A DNA stretch of 64,000 bases from an uncultured bacterium (lineage in GTDB: Bacteria > Zixibacteria > MSB-5A5 > UBA10806): the NCBI GenBank assembly GCA_965541585.1, contig CBEUCH010000007.1:48962-112961 (forward strand). The letters are read 5' to 3'. The position numbers and the translations under genes are program-made. The notes beneath the pieces are model-generated. The model was not told where the DNA came from. It made no database searches and saw only the letters and a list, made by a program, of their open reading frames with translations. Shown here piece after piece: positions 21,070-43,245 of this stretch. The stretch's first letter is position 1. Every line of letters starts with the position of its first letter.

Positions 21070-21118
21070 AGTTGCGAGTAGTATGGTTGGTTCCCGATGC
21101 CTTTAGCATTCTATAAAT

Positions 21119-22012
21119 TCAATTGTATTTTCCGATTTTAATTACTGGGTGTGGCGTCTCAGGGATTATAAGACTATCGCTAAAGAACATGATTTCTTTG
21201 CCTGAGTAGCGCGCCTGTGCACTATAACTTAAGCGATAACAGAGTTCGCGCCTGTCCTTGTATAAAGAAGTTACTTCCGGAACGGCATCATACGAAACGA
21301 TCCATGGCTGGCAAATCTGTTGTTGAATCGTTAGCGCCAAATTTCCATGATCACTATGCGTGAAATGGTTCTGATATAATTCTTTACCTTTAGCATAATA
21401 TGGTGGGTCCATATAAATTAGAGTTTTCAGCGGTAGCTTGGGTAAAACCTTCCTTATGAAATCCCTACCGTCCATACAATATACGGAAATGCGGCTTTTG
21501 AATCGTGCAATGCGTTGAATTCTTTTTATTAAGTCCCTTTTATTAAATCTTGCATCAAGTTTCCACTTCCCAGCCTGGCCTTTGCCGCCAATCACACCTC
21601 CAGATATTATGCCTGATCTATTTGTACGATTAAGAAAAAATGTACTGAACCCAAGTTCAAGGGCAGTGTGCCCATTTGGATTGTTTTGAATAGCTTTTTG
21701 TCTATGCCACTGTGCAATAGTGACTTTAGTATCTTGGATAAGGCGGCATAGATGGTCAGTATTCTCTAATAAGGAAACCCAGAAGCTATATATGGATCTA
21801 TCAAGGTCGTTGATATGAATTTGCCGAACATATTCTCCAAAAAGCATTGACCATGCTATACTAGCTCCGCCTGCAAAGGCCTCAACATAATGACCATCGT
21901 GCAAATCGTTTTCAGAAATGACAGTTTTTATAAACTTTACTAAGGCGCCCTTTCCTCCGGGGTAGCGCAAAGGACTCGTAAATGGATGGTTTTGAGCTTT
22001 TGGTATGTCCAT
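21119..22012 (-). CDS. Dam-family (D12 class) N6-adenine DNA methyltransferase
   Basis: LRYPGGK N-terminal motif, AdoMet motif EAFAGGAS and catalytic DPPY (YMDPPYY); AT-rich relative to flanks. Confidence 0.85.
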   Translation of the reverse strand: MDIPKAQNHPFTSPLRYPGGKGALVKFIKTVISENDLHDGHYVEAFAGGASIAWSMLFGEYVRQIHINDLDRSIYSFWVSLLENTDHLCRLIQDTKVTIAQWHRQKAIQNNPNGHTALELGFSTFFLNRTNRSGIISGGVIGGKGQAGKWKLDARFNKRDLIKRIQRIARFKSRISVYCMDGRDFIRKVLPKLPLKTLIYMDPPYYAKGKELYQNHFTHSDHGNLALTIQQQICQPWIVSYDAVPEVTSLYKDRRELCYRLSYSAQARYSGKEIMFFSDSLIIPETPHPVIKIGKYN

Positions 22013-22016
22013 CCGA

Positions 22017-23381
22017 TTAGGCCCATACCTTCTGGAAAAAGGGCTGGATGTTATCCCATATCCTTATTAGGTCGCTAGCGATCGGATTATAGTGCTGATT
22101 ATGGACATATTCCTGCCAATTGCTAATCGAAAAAATAGTATCTCTAGAGCTAACTAGAGTGCGAATGCCGTGGAGTTCTCTTTTGGAAGAAGCATCTTTA
22201 TCTACTAAATAATCAACAATACGTGCTACCTTCTTTTTAAGTGGCAAATCTCTTTGGGTTTTCTTGCCGTCCTTGTCCGTTCGTACCTCTCTTAGGCTTA
22301 TCCTTTTTATTCTTGCGAATTCATTTACACTCATTTCCATAAATACGCGAAGAAGCACGGCAGATGAGTTTTCGAAGTCGTTTACCTTGAGCCGCTTAAG
22401 CTCGTCAAAGATTCTAGTCATTCTTGGCTGGGCAATATTCAGTCTCAATGATTTTGGAATAAGCGTTTTACGGCTTGCACCATTTCCCTTTTTCTTTTTT
22501 GTCCGCTCCTTTGCAGGCGTCACTTGCCCGGTTAGGTCTGTTGGGGCGATCTTCTTTCCTGGGGTCGGTAAATCTCTCGCCGCTACGGCAGTTGCATAAC
22601 CTACACGTTGATCCTTAGTGTCGAGTTGAGTGACTTTAATATGCTTGTTTGCTATATCGTTAACTACAATTGCCATTCGACCTACTGCATCGGTTTTTTC
22701 ATCCGGATTGAGGAAAATAAGTTGCTTATTAATTATGTCCATTCCAATTATATGCCTCGCATCCGGAGTATTAATTAATCTTTGCAGGTTTGTAATAGGA
22801 ATTCTGGCCAGTTTGTCGCGAGTTTCATCATCTAAAAAATCACTATCTTTCACAATTTCAAGTAGCTGAGACTCCGGGGATTCTCCCCGGAATCGCGATG
22901 CGGCTATACCGTTCCAACTAATTATTCCAACACCGGCATTCTCTCCTGTATGGCGAAGCTCAATCCACATTCTCGCCTTTTTACGGCTGGGTGCTACTGT
23001 ACAATGAAGATTTACCGGGAGACTTGAACCATACTCTTGGTTTAGCGATTTTAGACGTCTTGCAATACTCGTCGGCAGCTTTAGGGAATCTACCAGTTTT
23101 GGCTCGGAGCATAATTTGATGGCAGCGACCCGCCTATTACCCTCTAATACAGTATAATATCCCTTATCACTCGAATTTATAACGATCGGCATTTCTGATG
23201 GATTAGTGTCGTTTTGAGCTATGTGCTCCGCTAATTTAACGAGCTTTTGTCCTTGTTCGATGGCTATTGTCCTAAGTGCTTCGCGTTGGTTATGTTGGGT
23301 TTCGAATCTAGGATTTTTGATGTCAAGTAACAGGTTTACCAAGTCGATATCTTCATACTCATACTTCTCTTTAGACATCAA
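22017..23381 (-). CDS. ParB/Srx N-terminal (ParB-like nuclease) domain protein with unassigned C-terminal half
   Basis: VNLLLDIKNPRF...MPIVINSSDKGYYTVLEGNRRVAAIKL matches the ParB/sulfiredoxin-fold box (L.D..NPR ... G.Y.V.EGNRR.AA.KL); Lys-rich linker KERTKKKKGNGASRK; 4-nt gap to the methyltransferase on the same strand. Confidence 0.6.
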   Translation of the reverse strand: MMSKEKYEYEDIDLVNLLLDIKNPRFETQHNQREALRTIAIEQGQKLVKLAEHIAQNDTNPSEMPIVINSSDKGYYTVLEGNRRVAAIKLCSEPKLVDSLKLPTSIARRLKSLNQEYGSSLPVNLHCTVAPSRKKARMWIELRHTGENAGVGIISWNGIAASRFRGESPESQLLEIVKDSDFLDDETRDKLARIPITNLQRLINTPDARHIIGMDIINKQLIFLNPDEKTDAVGRMAIVVNDIANKHIKVTQLDTKDQRVGYATAVAARDLPTPGKKIAPTDLTGQVTPAKERTKKKKGNGASRKTLIPKSLRLNIAQPRMTRIFDELKRLKVNDFENSSAVLLRVFMEMSVNEFARIKRISLREVRTDKDGKKTQRDLPLKKKVARIVDYLVDKDASSKRELHGIRTLVSSRDTIFSISNWQEYVHNQHYNPIASDLIRIWDNIQPFFQKVWA

Positions 23382-23555
23382 TGAACTCCCTTCATTAATA
23401 TTTCAAAAATCCAAGTTAGATTTCTATTCGGTTTTAAACTCACGTATATAAAATATATTAATCCGTGATGTTTTTGGCAAGATAATATTATGAGAATTTC
23501 AGAGCAATCGCTTTCCCTTAAGGTATTGCTACTTATATATTAGAGTAACTAGCAT

Positions 23556-26284: not shown

Positions 26285-26971
26285 ATGGATTTTTCGCCCA
26301 CTCAGGTCACCTCAATCGCTCTTGTAGTGATAGCCGGAACGGCGATCAGTATTCTCTCGTGCGTCGATAAGGCCACCGATGGTCACGGCGTATTCGACGT
26401 CTACGGCCGGGTGGTATATCGTCCGCCATTGTACGCCTCATCGGCGGAATTCCATATTTATAGCAACGGTGAAGCTGTAACCGGCGCAATTATAACGGTT
26501 GAGGAAGATGTTATCCCGGTGGTGGATACGGCATTCGGGTATTACAGTCTTCCGCTGGAGATACAAATCGGTGATACTCTGGAATATTCGGTCAGCTCGG
26601 AATTTGGCTCGCTCTTCGGCAGCGTCATAATCCCCGACACGGCGCAGATTATCCAACCCCTCGAGGGCGATACTCTAATATTCGGTCTGGCTTTCACTGC
26701 AAGCTGGCAAAGGGTCTCCGAGGCCGATGGTTACTATTCTTATCTTGAGAACCAGGCGGGATTCGTGGCGGCGGTCACCGAGATCTATTTTGATACCACC
26801 GCTATCCTGCCCGGAGAGTATTTTTTCGAATCCGGTTTCGACAATTTCTGGCTCGAGACCCTGACCGGGAATATCGTTAGAGGGTCCACGCCGGATGGCA
26901 GGATCCTCCCGCGCGGCGTTGTGGGTTCTGCCGGCAGTTATAGAGAGGTATATATAGATTTTGCAGACTAA
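26285..26971 (+). CDS. hypothetical lipoprotein
   Basis: Signal peptide ending ILSC (lipobox-like); no recognisable domain. Confidence 0.4.
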   Translation: MDFSPTQVTSIALVVIAGTAISILSCVDKATDGHGVFDVYGRVVYRPPLYASSAEFHIYSNGEAVTGAIITVEEDVIPVVDTAFGYYSLPLEIQIGDTLEYSVSSEFGSLFGSVIIPDTAQIIQPLEGDTLIFGLAFTASWQRVSEADGYYSYLENQAGFVAAVTEIYFDTTAILPGEYFFESGFDNFWLETLTGNIVRGSTPDGRILPRGVVGSAGSYREVYIDFAD

Positions 26972-27017: not shown

Positions 27018-28421
27018 ATGACCGATATGCAAAAAACGATCAGAAAGCCAGCCTCGTTTTCCGGGATTGGCCTTCACACCGGCGTTGAGACAACGATAAC
27101 CTTCAGGCCGGCGCCTATCAATCACGGAATAACGTTTATACGGACCGACCTGGAGGACTGCCCGGAGATTCCCGCCGACGTCGATCATGTAGTCGACCTT
27201 AAGCGTGGCACGACTCTCGGTTTTAACGGCATCAAGGTTCACACGGTGGAGCATGTGCTGGCGGCGATTGCGGGATTGCAGGTAGACAACCTGAAGGTGG
27301 AGTTGTCGAATTCGGAGCCGCCGGTGGGGGATGGTTCCGCCTGGCATTTTGTGGAAGCGATAACAGAGGCAGGGATAGTCGAACAGGACGCTCCCAGGGA
27401 ATATCTCCAGATTGATGAGCATATAACGTATACCGAAAGAGAACGCGGTGTTGATCTGGTAGTCGTGCCATCGGATAGATTGCGCATAACATTTATGGTT
27501 GATTATAAAAATCCCGCCCTGGGAACTCAATACACCACGCTGGTCGATTTAGATAAGGAATTCATCGAGGATTTTTCCAAAGCTCGAACCTTCTGCTTCC
27601 TGACCGAAGTGGAACAGTTGCTTGAGGCGGACCTGATCAAGGGCGGCAGCCTGGACAATGCCATAGTCATTATAGATGAAAACCTTACGGATAAGAGAGC
27701 AAAGAACCTCGGTGAGAAGTTTAAAGAAAAGCGAAAAATATTCGCCGGGAAAAGCGGGATATTAAATGATACTCCCTTGAGATACTACAATGAACCTGTC
27801 AGGCACAAGGCGCTCGATCTTCTGGGAGATCTGTTCCTTATAGGAGTCCCGTTGAAAGCTCATATCCTGGCAGCGCGCTCGGGACACGCCGCCAATGTTG
27901 CACTGGCCCGTAAGATTCGAACCATCTACCAGAAGCAGCTTCTGTCGGCCAAATATCAAAAGGGGAAAACGGAGGGCAAATTTCTGCTCGATATCAATGC
28001 CATTTTAAAGATTATGCCGCACCGTTATCCATTTCTGATGATTGATAGAGTTCTGGATATGGAGGGTTCGTCCAGGATCGTGGCCATTAAAAATGTAACC
28101 GTAAACGAACCGTATTTCTCCGGCCATTTTCCGGGAAAGCCGGTCATGCCGGGGGTGATGATCGTGGAGGCCATGGCGCAGACCGGAGGGCTTCTGCTTC
28201 TGAATGCCATTGACGATCCGGACAATAAGCTGGCGTATTTCATGGGCATCGATGGCGTGAAATTCAGAAAACCGGTAACACCCGGCGATCAGCTCAGGAT
28301 GGAGATCGAGATGTTGAGTTTCAAGCGGTCGACCATCAAGATTGCCGGCAAGGCATTCGTCGATGGGAAAGTTGTCGCCGAAGGCACATTTCTGGCGGTA
28401 GTAGTTGATAAAGATGGGTGA
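27018..28421 (+). CDS. lpxC/fabZ: bifunctional UDP-3-O-acyl-GlcNAc deacetylase / 3-hydroxyacyl-ACP dehydratase (LpxC-FabZ fusion)
   Basis: N-terminal LpxC (KTIRKPASFSGIGLHTGV...HTVEHVLAA); C-terminal FabZ hot-dog (PHRYPFLMIDRV...EPYFSGHFPGKPVMPGV). Confidence 0.93.
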   Translation: MTDMQKTIRKPASFSGIGLHTGVETTITFRPAPINHGITFIRTDLEDCPEIPADVDHVVDLKRGTTLGFNGIKVHTVEHVLAAIAGLQVDNLKVELSNSEPPVGDGSAWHFVEAITEAGIVEQDAPREYLQIDEHITYTERERGVDLVVVPSDRLRITFMVDYKNPALGTQYTTLVDLDKEFIEDFSKARTFCFLTEVEQLLEADLIKGGSLDNAIVIIDENLTDKRAKNLGEKFKEKRKIFAGKSGILNDTPLRYYNEPVRHKALDLLGDLFLIGVPLKAHILAARSGHAANVALARKIRTIYQKQLLSAKYQKGKTEGKFLLDINAILKIMPHRYPFLMIDRVLDMEGSSRIVAIKNVTVNEPYFSGHFPGKPVMPGVMIVEAMAQTGGLLLLNAIDDPDNKLAYFMGIDGVKFRKPVTPGDQLRMEIEMLSFKRSTIKIAGKAFVDGKVVAEGTFLAVVVDKDG

Positions 28422-41100: not shown

Positions 41101-43245
41101 ATGGAAATAGCAGTATTATCAAGTCATTGGTTCTGGTATTCGATTTTTACATTAGCAGGGATCATAGTCGGTGTAGCATCATATCACAGAAGTTTTCCTC
41201 CATTGAGCCGGTTCTGGAGGATTTTTCTGGCCATCCTCAGGGGAGCCATGATTCTTCTTCTGGGGCTTTTCTTGATTGAACCTGTCCTGAATCTCTATTC
41301 GTCGAAACTGGTGCAACCCGTGCTGGCGGTTCTGGTGGACCATTCCAGGAGTATGGGCGTTACTCTTGAAGATGGATCAAGAATCGATCTGGCCGATAGT
41401 CTCAGTCGACAGATGCTGTCGGATCTTGAAAGCGACTATAAGCTCTTTTCGTTTTCGGACAGCATGTTTCAAATAGAGGATTTTCCGCCGACCTCAGATC
41501 TCCGCGGCGATGCCACATCGATCGTGCGCGCATTTCAGGATCTCGGCTCCAGGAAGGATTTCGACAGGTTCGGCGCGATTCTTCTGGCAACGGATGGCCG
41601 ACAGAATCTCGGAGGCGACCCGGTTAAAGCTGCAATGAGACTTAATATTCCGGTCCATACCCTGACAGTCGGGGAGAAAATCGGAGAATCCAATCTCGCG
41701 GTTGACGAGGTAATATCGCCTTCGGTTGTCTATAGCGGCGATGATTTCAGAATAGAAACACGCATAGGCGCCGAGGGGATCGAGGCTCAAAGATCAAGGG
41801 TCTATCTTAAGATCGGTAATAAGGTAATTACCGAAAGGCCTTTCGATATACCTCGTGAAGGGCGCAAGACGAAAATCGAGTTTGATATAAAAGCACCGGA
41901 GCCGAGCGATTATGAGTATGCTATTTCAACCCCCGTATTGGATCGGGAAGGAGAAAGTGCAGACAATGAGAGAATTTTCGCCGTCAAGGTGCTGAAGAAT
42001 AAAATCAGAATATTTCTCGGGTCGGCATCTTTGGACTGGGAATATAAATTTATCAACCGATCGCTATCAAGATTCGAGGAATTCGAGGTGGATGAGGTTT
42101 TTCCGGAAAGCAGCGGTAAATTTTCATCGCCCGGTGTTCCCAGAAGTTTAGAAGATCTCAAAAAATACGATCTGATATTGCTTGTTAACAGCTCGCCCGG
42201 GAAGCTGAGGATGATCGTATCCGATTTGAAAAAGTACGTAGAGGACGGCGGTTCGCTCATATATATGGCAGGCGCAGGTTGTCTTTCGGATATAGGCTCC
42301 TTTGACGATTTACTTCCGTTAGATCTGCGGAAACCTGAAATAACGGATGGCGAATTTTTCTTCGAGACCACACCAACTCGAAAGCATCATGCTGCGATCC
42401 TGCTTGACGATGATCCGGAAACGAGCCGCAGGCTGTGGAATTCGCTGCCACCGTTTGGCCGTCTTATCTCGGGTATTCGCCCGACCGGCGATCTGCTACT
42501 CGAAGCCAGACTCAGCCAGCGGGGCGATCCCGCGATCCCGGTGCTGACAGTGGGTAAGTACGGTCATGGCCTGGTGGCTGCGGTTACCGGATTCCCGATC
42601 TGGCGCAGCCATTTCGGGTCGGCAAAGGACGATAGACTTGCAAAGGCAATTCCAGGATTCTGGAAAAACCTCGCCAGATGGGCGACCGCCGGCGAGCGAT
42701 CCGAAAACTTCCGGATAATGACTAACCGCAAGGTGTATCGTCTCGGCGAACCGGTGCCTATGACCGGATACCTGTACGACGAGGCCAACCGCGCAAGAAA
42801 CGGTGCCCTGGTCCTGGTTTCAATCATCCCTGAGGGTGACGATGCCCCGATCAAGGACGCCGTTTTGACCCAATCAGGCAGCGGCATCTACACCGGAGAG
42901 ATATCATCGCTTCCAGCGGGAAACTATGTTTTCAATGCCGTGGCATCATCCTACGGAGATACAGTAGGTTCGACGTCGGGGGAATTCACGATAGAGAAAT
43001 CCAGCCTGGAGATGGCGTCACGTTCTCCCGATTACAACCTGACCCGCAGGATCGCGGAAGCGACGGGAGCAATCGCATATACAAAAGACGATTTCGAAAA
43101 GTTCTCCGGCGATCTGCAATTGACCCCCTATACCGAAGAGACTCACGCCCGGATAAGGCCGTTCGGCATGCCGCTGTTTTTGATTATTCTCTTGGCCGGC
43201 CTGACAATCGAGTGGGGTTTGAGGAAGAGATTCAGGCTGCCGTAG
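41101..43245 (+). CDS. BatA-like membrane protein with VWA (DxSxS) domain and C-terminal TM anchor
   Basis: Two N-terminal TM helices, then LAVLVDHSRSMGV (VWA MIDAS DxSxS); C-terminal LFLIILLAGLTIEWGLRKRFRLP anchor. Confidence 0.5.
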   Translation: MEIAVLSSHWFWYSIFTLAGIIVGVASYHRSFPPLSRFWRIFLAILRGAMILLLGLFLIEPVLNLYSSKLVQPVLAVLVDHSRSMGVTLEDGSRIDLADSLSRQMLSDLESDYKLFSFSDSMFQIEDFPPTSDLRGDATSIVRAFQDLGSRKDFDRFGAILLATDGRQNLGGDPVKAAMRLNIPVHTLTVGEKIGESNLAVDEVISPSVVYSGDDFRIETRIGAEGIEAQRSRVYLKIGNKVITERPFDIPREGRKTKIEFDIKAPEPSDYEYAISTPVLDREGESADNERIFAVKVLKNKIRIFLGSASLDWEYKFINRSLSRFEEFEVDEVFPESSGKFSSPGVPRSLEDLKKYDLILLVNSSPGKLRMIVSDLKKYVEDGGSLIYMAGAGCLSDIGSFDDLLPLDLRKPEITDGEFFFETTPTRKHHAAILLDDDPETSRRLWNSLPPFGRLISGIRPTGDLLLEARLSQRGDPAIPVLTVGKYGHGLVAAVTGFPIWRSHFGSAKDDRLAKAIPGFWKNLARWATAGERSENFRIMTNRKVYRLGEPVPMTGYLYDEANRARNGALVLVSIIPEGDDAPIKDAVLTQSGSGIYTGEISSLPAGNYVFNAVASSYGDTVGSTSGEFTIEKSSLEMASRSPDYNLTRRIAEATGAIAYTKDDFEKFSGDLQLTPYTEETHARIRPFGMPLFLIILLAGLTIEWGLRKRFRLP

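Follow-up and report, generated by a model that had tools for sequence, protein, structure and literature searches.

What is a two-gene, AT-rich cassette doing among the housekeeping genes of an uncultured Zixibacteria bacterium, and does it belong to a system whose function is known? The cassette lies in a stretch of 64,000 nucleotides of contig CBEUCH010000007.1 (assembly GCA_965541585.1, positions 48,962 to 112,961 of the forward strand), which was analysed as a whole and is called the window here. It consists of two intact open reading frames (ORFs) on the minus strand, gene A and then gene B, in an island of approximately 2.5 kb that is flanked by an epimerase gene and mscS. A preliminary description of this DNA had proposed an atypical, methylation-linked defence module for the pair, as opposed to an orphan Dam or a partition ParB. 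We find that the locus belongs, with little doubt, to the family of PD-λ-5 defence pairs, and that it is probably, as predicted from sequence, a horizontally acquired, intact anti-phage defence cassette of this type, whose phage resistance is known from the E. coli system. The proposal of a defence module thus stands, given the PD-λ-5 models, the E. coli homologues and the absence of parA, whereas the arrangement is not novel: a publication of 2022 describes the architecture, which is also contained in the PADLOC models, such that this locus is a further copy and the system itself is not new.

The assignment rests on matches over nearly the entire length of both proteins. A matched the PADLOC model PD-Lambda-5_A (PDLC03998) at E = 4.8e-125, with residues 9-453 aligned to positions 4-464 of the 466 positions of the profile; 26 PADLOC models matched A, and the 25 shown were all PD-Lambda-5_A. 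B matched PD-Lambda-5_B (PDLC04018) at E = 4.4e-123, with residues 11-287 on positions 4-279 of 291. A is upstream of B and co-oriented with it, which is the order of the PD-λ-5 type pair. Prophage matches that we traced to E. coli (loci L120-L126) were used for a direct comparison with the window pair. The E. coli pair spans 2,460 bp, lies in a P2 prophage between the replication endonuclease and portal genes, and shares its best PADLOC models with the window pair. Both proteins align end to end with their E. coli counterparts, A with 26% identity (E = 4e-37) and B, whose counterpart is annotated as "DNA adenine methylase", with 48% identity (E = 3e-99).

PD-λ-5 is one of 21 systems that emerged from a functional selection in E. 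coli isolates (Vassallo et al. 2022, Nat Microbiol, PMC9519451), and the supplement of that study annotates it as "ParB/HEPN, methyltransferase". In ECOR7 it spans 264599-267059 (2,461 bp) of a P2-like prophage, and the P2 defence hotspot described there is the position of the E. coli pair that we compared (PMC9519451). Under its native promoter in E. coli, PD-λ-5 affected 9 of the 10 phages tested, that is, all but one, with the strongest protection against T-even phages, and its spectrum was among the broadest in the screen (PMC9519451). Its discoverers call it a compacted "RM+Abi" system, combining restriction-modification (R-M) with abortive infection (PMC9519451). Its cloning required a Δmrr host (PMC9519451), which suggests that the methyltransferase of this E. 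coli homologue is active in vivo.

The window cassette is laid out as follows, all coordinates being those of the window; the residue numbers of A follow the 454-aa version of the protein that begins with a TTG codon.

22017-23378, minus strand: gene A, homologue of PD-λ-5 A; 453 aa from the ATG at 23378, with ParB/Srx domain, helical domain, Lys-rich linker and predicted HEPN domain.
22989-23360, minus strand: ParB/Srx-type nucleotide-binding N-domain (approximately aa 8-131), with the invariant Box I-like N23-P24-R25 and the Box II/P-motif E80-G81-N82-R83-R84.
22572-22988, minus strand: helical middle domain (approximately aa 132-270), with invariant W139, H144, G146, G150, W156, R163 and R201.
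22428-22571, minus strand: low-complexity Lys-rich linker (approximately aa 271-318), disordered at 287-301.
22020-22427, minus strand: predicted C-terminal HEPN-fold domain (approximately aa 319-454), with near-invariant E327, R345 and H427, plus E/D349, S351 and N428.
21119-22012, minus strand: gene B, homologue of PD-λ-5 B; 297 aa, predicted alpha-class (D12) N6-adenine DNA methyltransferase, with FAGGAS and, at aa 202-205, DPPY.
22013-22016, minus strand: spacer of 4 nt (TCGG) between the stop of A and the ATG of B.
23379-23555, minus strand: AT-rich spacer upstream of A, with the ribosome-binding site GAAGGGAG and one sigma-70-like match at 23452-23480.

The composition of A could not be read from sequence profiles. 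The Pfam models for ParBc, HEPN, DndB and DUF262 found no match in A or in 63 homologues, and the remainder of Pfam and NCBIfam gave nothing meaningful for A (DUF7099 at E = 0.12 and an ECF-sigma fragment far under its cut-off). A search of PDB sequences returned titin (E = 1.2) for A alone and an Hsc70 fragment (E = 0.022) for the family profile, both of which are spurious. Membership of A in DndB (PF14072 and the NCBIfam model) or in DUF262 (PF03235) was considered and rejected, since neither A nor the 63 homologues matched the respective hidden Markov models (HMMs). The structure of A was predicted with AlphaFold2 on an alignment of 64 sequences, which gave a mean pLDDT (the per-residue confidence) of 91.4, with residues 287-301 of the linker (pLDDT below 50) as the sole disordered stretch. 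Comparison of this model with known structures confirmed a ParB/Srx fold for the N-domain, and in fold searches residues 1-270, approximately, had ParB, Noc and KorB as their best structural matches. The helical middle domain, which also carries the motif LRHTGENxGVG, is probably the ParB-like DNA-binding part. Residues 319-454, approximately, form a four-helix HEPN fold in the predicted model. Taken together, an architecture consisting of a ParB/Srx domain of the nucleoside triphosphate (NTP)-binding type with a helical domain, a flexible Lys-rich linker and a HEPN domain is strongly supported.

This revises the preliminary description in several respects. The motifs quoted there (NPRF, GYYTVLEGNRRVAAIKL, the Lys-rich linker KERTKKKKG, RYPGGK, FAGGAS and DPPY) are all present in the translations. 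It had called the ParB/Srx box of A unmistakable; the structural comparison agrees with the fold, but a box to which Pfam ParBc is blind in A and 63 homologues is not unmistakable for profile HMMs. The C-terminal region of roughly 200 aa, said to be of unknown fold, dissolves into two parts, one of which (residues 132-270, approximately) extends the ParB-like helical part, while the other (residues 319-454, approximately) is the HEPN domain of the model. The HEPN domain, which is probably the key effector, had been missed. Vassallo et al. (PMC9519451) had obtained HHsearch probabilities of 35.6% for DUF4145 and 8% for HEPN_RiboL-PSP on their system, and the HEPN call from our predicted structure is firmer support than these values. 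A 2025 survey of the ParB-CTPase fold reported binders of CTP, ATP and GTP, but no HEPN fusion, perhaps because the family of A is invisible to Pfam ParBc.

Conserved residues are found in both halves of A. Among 138 non-redundant members, down to approximately 23% identity, N23, R25, G81-N82-R83-R84, H144, W156 and R201 of the ParB half as well as E327, R345 and H427 of the HEPN half are near-invariant, and the stretch G81-N82-R83-R84 (GxRR, with the Box II arginines) is invariant in all 138 sequences. The N-domain has the highest mean pairwise identity within the family (40%) and the linker the lowest (13%). No PD-(D/E)xK, HNH, GIY-YIG or PLD fold was matched by A in Pfam, in the PDB sequence search or in the fold searches.

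B matches the D12 family of Pfam (PF02086, E = 4.3e-18) and an adenine methyltransferase in the PDB (7m6b, E = 2e-15), and the motif FAGGAS for binding of S-adenosylmethionine (SAM) and the catalytic DPPY are intact in B and invariant across the family. This strongly supports B as a predicted, active-looking D12-class N6-adenine DNA methyltransferase, and the downstream gene had been described as such. The additional label "Dam-family" holds at the level of the D12 class but not for Dam proper: the score against the NCBIfam dam model (TIGR00571) was 46.9 bits, which is under the curated cut-off of 114.85, and B as a Dam orthologue was rejected. The PADLOC model "Type II methyltransferase" matched B at E = 9e-115. 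Across 139 homologues of B, 55 positions are at least 93% conserved, and 19 of these fall into residues 100-180, between the SAM and DPPY motifs, where conservation equals that of the catalytic core (NRxNRSG at 128-134 being one example). It is between the SAM and the catalytic motifs that methyltransferases of the alpha class have their target-recognition domain. The conservation of this region throughout the family therefore suggests that B and its relatives would recognise a single, fixed methylation motif, which would be unusual for methyltransferases of R-M systems.

How widespread is the pair, and how firmly are its two genes linked? In a species-level scan, relatives of A turned up in at least 396 genomes, from which 80 loci were kept for inspection, and a scan of viral contigs found 126 with such a relative, of which 78 loci were inspected. 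The genomes belong to many bacterial phyla and to several archaeal lineages, and family members occur in prophages, islands and plasmids. A homologue of B adjoins A in 77 of the 80 genome loci (two of the others are cut by contig ends, and one is without B) and in 74 of the 74 viral loci with enough sequence, such that a D12 methyltransferase stands beside A in 151 of the 152 informative loci. The co-oriented arrangement was seen in 76 of 78 genome loci and in most viral loci, and in related loci B starts between -6 and approximately 120 nt after A. The pairwise identities of A and of B are correlated (Pearson 0.74). In 99.6% of pairs it is B that is better conserved, the medians being 45.7% for B and 28.8% for A, and a faster divergence of A than of B is typical of restriction and methyltransferase partners. 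These data strongly support A and B as a near-obligate, co-evolving pair.

The inspected loci also yielded several individual observations. In some ten loci (L074, L091, L104, L118, L127-L129, L138, L153 and L154), B lies on the opposite strand and converges with A at a distance of 40-100 nt, which represents a second layout of the same pair. The sole informative locus with a homologue of A and no D12 methyltransferase (L033, 2305-11188) belongs to the Bdellovibrionales metagenome-assembled genome (MAG) OZ253553.1. Its A homologue is full-length, with 34% identity (E = 2e-74) and all signature motifs; it comes directly after genes for a DndD/PbeC-like ABC ATPase and for a "DNA phosphorothioation-associated protein 4" (dnd_assoc_4, PbeD-like), is convergent with a dndC-D-E-A phosphorothioation operon, and matched neither the DndB nor the DUF262 models. 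This context suggests that the ParB-HEPN protein can also attach to a self-marking system based on phosphorothioate. One viral contig (IMGVR_UViG_3300034072_002256, 75,273 bp) carries two copies of the pair (L096 and L097) approximately 39 kb apart, with slightly different matches of 1452 and 1440 nt (E = 6e-48 and 3e-47), which could reflect a duplication, a concatemer or a chimeric assembly. In Mucilaginibacter straminoryzae (L003, 3499-8407), four genes directly downstream of the pair have no or faint Pfam matches, one of them a faint HerA_C/AAA_10, and a Transposase_20 gene lies upstream, and the locus might represent a small defence island. The closest relatives of A that bear a name come from MAGs of candidate division Zixibacteria.

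Several features of the window argue that the cassette arrived by horizontal transfer. The island (21070-23555) has a GC content of 40.7%, as compared to 49.3 +/- 1.9% elsewhere in the window (z = -4.5); among 566 other segments of the same size, the lowest value was 43.0%. The GC content at third codon positions (GC3) is 0.39 for A and 0.37 for B, whereas neighbouring genes have values of 0.56-0.66, and the spacer at 23379-23555 has a GC content of 28.8%. The preliminary description was therefore right about an AT-rich segment between the galE-like gene and mscS, and also about two minus-strand genes 4 nt apart. The deviation of both measures from the flanks argues for horizontal acquisition of the island. 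Furthermore, a Zixibacteria homologue of A with 55% identity sits in a different, unrelated gene context, which indicates that the cassette moves as a two-gene unit. The edges of the island are not marked by repeats, since searches for flanking direct or inverted repeats gave only short chance matches.

A Pfam scan of the window ORFs identified the near neighbours as an ABC transporter, the GalE-like epimerase, MscS, a ComM/Mg-chelatase-like protein, LpxC-FabZ and LpxA, and more distant genes of the window (DnaE, enolase, IleRS, GlmS) have housekeeping functions. Among the neighbours of the pair in the window, there was neither a parA nor an integrase, transposase, tRNA or phage gene. As regards the rest of the window, LpxC and FabZ are fused (27018-28421, LpxC and FabA-like domains in one ORF of 467 aa) and followed by the LpxA-like gene, which may serve as a taxonomic marker. 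The ORFs at 41101-43245 (714 aa) and 26285-26971 (228 aa) had no Pfam match at thresholds of E up to 1e-6 and 1e-5. The sequence GATC occurs 462 times in window positions 1-64000, as compared to approximately 250 occurrences expected from base composition (approximately 1.85-fold), with no sign of GATC avoidance.

With respect to expression, the ORF finder lists A as 22017-23381 (454 aa), with a TTG start one codon upstream of an ATG. The ATG at 23378 is the better start, because the resulting product is identical to a database protein (P0001, 453 aa) and the ribosome-binding site (23386-23393) is located 7 nt upstream of it. There is no obvious separate ribosome-binding site for B in the region of the A-B spacer, and translational coupling of B with A is therefore likely. 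The preliminary description had placed a putative promoter in 23382-23555. The region is indeed AT-rich and contains a sigma-70-like match (TTGCCA-17-TATATT, 23480-23452), but such matches are not enriched over shuffled sequences (10 versus 7.0 +/- 2.1), so that this one is indistinguishable from chance. The promoter and terminator scan found no terminator between mscS and A, its matches being no commoner than in shuffles, and read-through from mscS into A is thus possible. The ribosome-binding site and start of A lie between the arms of a 13-nt inverted repeat (23308-23320 and 23403-23415), which are 92% complementary and 82 nt apart, one in the 5′ leader and the other in the coding region. 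A regulatory hairpin, an operator or chance could account for this repeat.

How might such a pair stop phages? We propose that B would methylate a fixed adenine motif in the host DNA, thereby placing N6-methyladenine (m6A) as a mark of self, and that the ParB-type nucleotide- and DNA-binding module of A would engage DNA that does not carry the mark. HEPN ribonucleases (RNases) generally require dimerisation in order to form their active site. A nucleotide-dependent dimerisation of the ParB N-domain could thus unite two HEPN domains into an active RNase, which would shut down expression and thereby represent the "Abi" arm of the system, while nicking of DNA by the ParB fold, alongside this or instead of it, would represent the "R" arm. 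For RNA cleavage by the HEPN domain as the main effector step, we see somewhat less than an even chance, and DNA cleavage by the ParB domain in this role is less probable. DNA of T-even phages, which contains glucosylated hydroxymethylcytosine, resists most Type II enzymes. The strong protection against these phages, whose DNA is heavily modified at cytosine, hence favours a mechanism that is independent of ordinary Type II cleavage.

A more specific version of this proposal, which we put forward tentatively and consider rather unlikely, is that A is an immune sensor in the form of a ParB-type nucleotide-gated DNA clamp that would load on unmarked DNA, with closure of the N-domains dimerising a non-canonical HEPN RNase. 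The HEPN domain may in this case be a variant whose His, Arg and Glu are located on different helices. Such a sensor-effector may be portable between self-marks, these being m6A in 151 of the 152 loci and the phosphorothioate of a Dnd/Pbe system in L033. Portability would imply that A, instead of sensing the modification itself, depends on the modification machinery, which would exclude or license it. If true, the clamp-sensor reading would add innate immunity to chromosome segregation and transcription as processes that use the CTP/NTP switch of ParB.

A number of points weigh against a defence cassette that works in this manner. A is only 26% identical to the E. coli protein of the validated type, and the E. 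coli locus was taken as PD-λ-5 on the grounds of architecture, size, position in a prophage and PADLOC models, and not by the accession RCQ13837.1. Expression and defence activity of the present copy in its own host are predictions. A literature search for mechanistic studies of PD-λ-5, for ParB-HEPN proteins and for the accessions of the E. coli proteins yielded census papers only. As for the ParB half, a weak hhalign alignment to B. subtilis Spo0J (E = 0.049), which serves as a guide to the motifs and not as proof of common descent, places NPR on the Box I QPR and GNRR on the Box II GERR, such that the invariant Asn82 replaces the Glu of GERR, and the invariant E80 is found two residues earlier. 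This Glu is needed for CTP hydrolysis in ParB, which makes a ParB-like hydrolytic cycle in A uncertain. As for the HEPN half, the Arg of the canonical Rx4-6H motif is missing: the residues four to six positions before H427 are of the S/D/L/W type, Arg being absent from them throughout, the closest position with Arg (413) has it in only 19 of 64 sequences, and the invariant R345 and E327 are on other helices than H427. RNase activity is therefore not assured, though some described HEPN families likewise retain only the His.

These points leave room for other explanations of the pair. A serious one, which is essentially the version of the preliminary description, is a classical, though unusual, Type II-like R-M system in which the ParB/Srx fold of A cuts or nicks unmethylated sites and B protects them, with the HEPN domain being structural, regulatory or a back-up. 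Reviews describe nuclease as well as NTPase activities for the ParB superfamily, and some ParB/Srx proteins nick DNA; B, with its FAGGAS and DPPY motifs, matches the PADLOC model for Type II methyltransferases; A evolves faster than B; and the Δmrr requirement of PD-λ-5 shows that methylation is real. Yet A has no recognised restriction-nuclease fold, the conservation of E327, R345 and H427 argues for a catalytic rather than an inert HEPN domain, PD-λ-5 acts most strongly on T-even phages, and the recognition region of B is conserved throughout the family, unlike the diversifying specificities of typical R-M systems. We therefore regard this explanation as doubtful, though far from negligible. 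It is also known that R-M systems can behave as addiction modules, and a selfish, toxin-antitoxin-like cassette, in which A becomes toxic when methylation lapses, resulting in post-segregational killing with phage protection as an incidental effect, would fit a compact unit of strictly two genes that is horizontally mobile, stands alone among housekeeping genes and has relatives in prophages, islands and plasmids. The strong and broad phage protection that the E. coli homologue confers from its native promoter makes this improbable as the whole explanation, and addiction and defence are compatible and not mutually exclusive.

Two further explanations assign A a role in regulation or in partition. 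A negative role in the regulation of DNA modification is reported for DndB, another member of the ParB superfamily, to which a HEPN domain is fused, and one homologue of A (that of L033) is located in a Dnd/Pbe locus without a D12 methyltransferase, so that A could be a KorB/DndB-like nucleotide-switch repressor that tunes the methyltransferase, the pair being an epigenetic regulatory module. However, a methyltransferase and its regulator alone cannot stop phages, whereas the two-gene E. coli system does, the HEPN triad E327/R345/H427 is conserved, and HMMs detect no relationship of A to DndB or DUF262, all of which renders this very improbable. For A as a partition ParB of a plasmid or prophage, next to an unrelated orphan Dam, there is only the ParB fold with its helix-turn-helix-like helical domain. 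The preliminary description had named an adjacent parA or parS as what would overturn its proposal; both were looked for, and neither a parA nor a family of parS-like repeats was found. Furthermore, no integrase, tRNA or prophage gene is nearby, the C-terminal dimerisation domain of ParB is replaced by HEPN, and a methyltransferase is kept beside A in 151 of 152 loci. We consider the chance of a partition function to be vanishingly small and have rejected it. The reading of the locus as a PD-λ-5-type defence cassette is thus the one that we prefer.

What is gained by this reading is, in terms of annotation, that "hypothetical protein + DNA adenine methylase" becomes a named system that was validated experimentally in E. 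coli. It shows PD-λ-5 as a solitary, horizontally acquired cassette of the core chromosome, far from the E. coli prophage in which it was discovered. At the level of the family, our analysis adds structural support for the HEPN domain, invariant residues (NPR, GNRR, E327, R345 and H427) as targets for mutagenesis, the near-obligate co-evolution of the pair across phyla, and a conserved recognition region in B that suggests a fixed target. PD-λ-5 is a reasonable target for mechanistic work, while the locus described here does not in itself amount to a discovery.

In this context, it is instructive to compare the pair with other systems in which ParB-like domains occur. The fold of residues 1-270 of A, approximately, is shared with the CTP-dependent clamps ParB, Noc and KorB, as are the Box I-like NPR and the arginine pair of Box II. 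A differs from them in that it has no ParA partner, carries HEPN in place of the C-terminal dimerisation domain, has GNRR instead of GERR and is negative for ParBc. GmrSD/BrxU and SspE likewise fuse a ParB-superfamily N-domain (DUF262) to a C-terminal nuclease in modification-related defence, and BrxU and SspE were among the fold-search matches of A. The EGNRR of A (acidic-Gly-amide-x-Arg) presumably resembles the DGQQR motif of DUF262, which we take as a lead only. These systems differ from A in that they attack modified DNA (Type IV) or sense phosphorothioate, use an HNH/DUF1524 DNase effector rather than HEPN, and match the DUF262 HMM, which A does not.

Closer in its logic is DndB, which combines a ParB-like domain with HEPN (Makarova et al. 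2013) and is partnered with a DNA-modification module, and a homologue of A was found in the dndCDEA/Pbe-like locus L033. There is no detectable sequence match of A to PF14072 or the NCBIfam DndB model, DndB is reported as a regulator whereas A of PD-λ-5 must supply the effector function, and the Dnd modification is phosphorothioate, as opposed to m6A as the mark of the PD-λ-5 partner. A purely computational survey of HEPN proteins linked to R-M systems lists a fusion "ParB (Saro_3948)" (Anantharaman et al. 2013), which may belong to the family of A. The closest counterpart is PD-λ-5 of E. coli ECOR7 itself. As compared to it, A of the window is approximately 48 aa shorter, mainly in the linker (453 versus 501 aa), and the cassette stands alone in a core-chromosome region of a non-enteric bacterium instead of in a prophage hotspot, while gene order, the architecture of ParB/HEPN plus D12 methyltransferase, the best PADLOC models and alignments over the full length of both proteins are common to the two.

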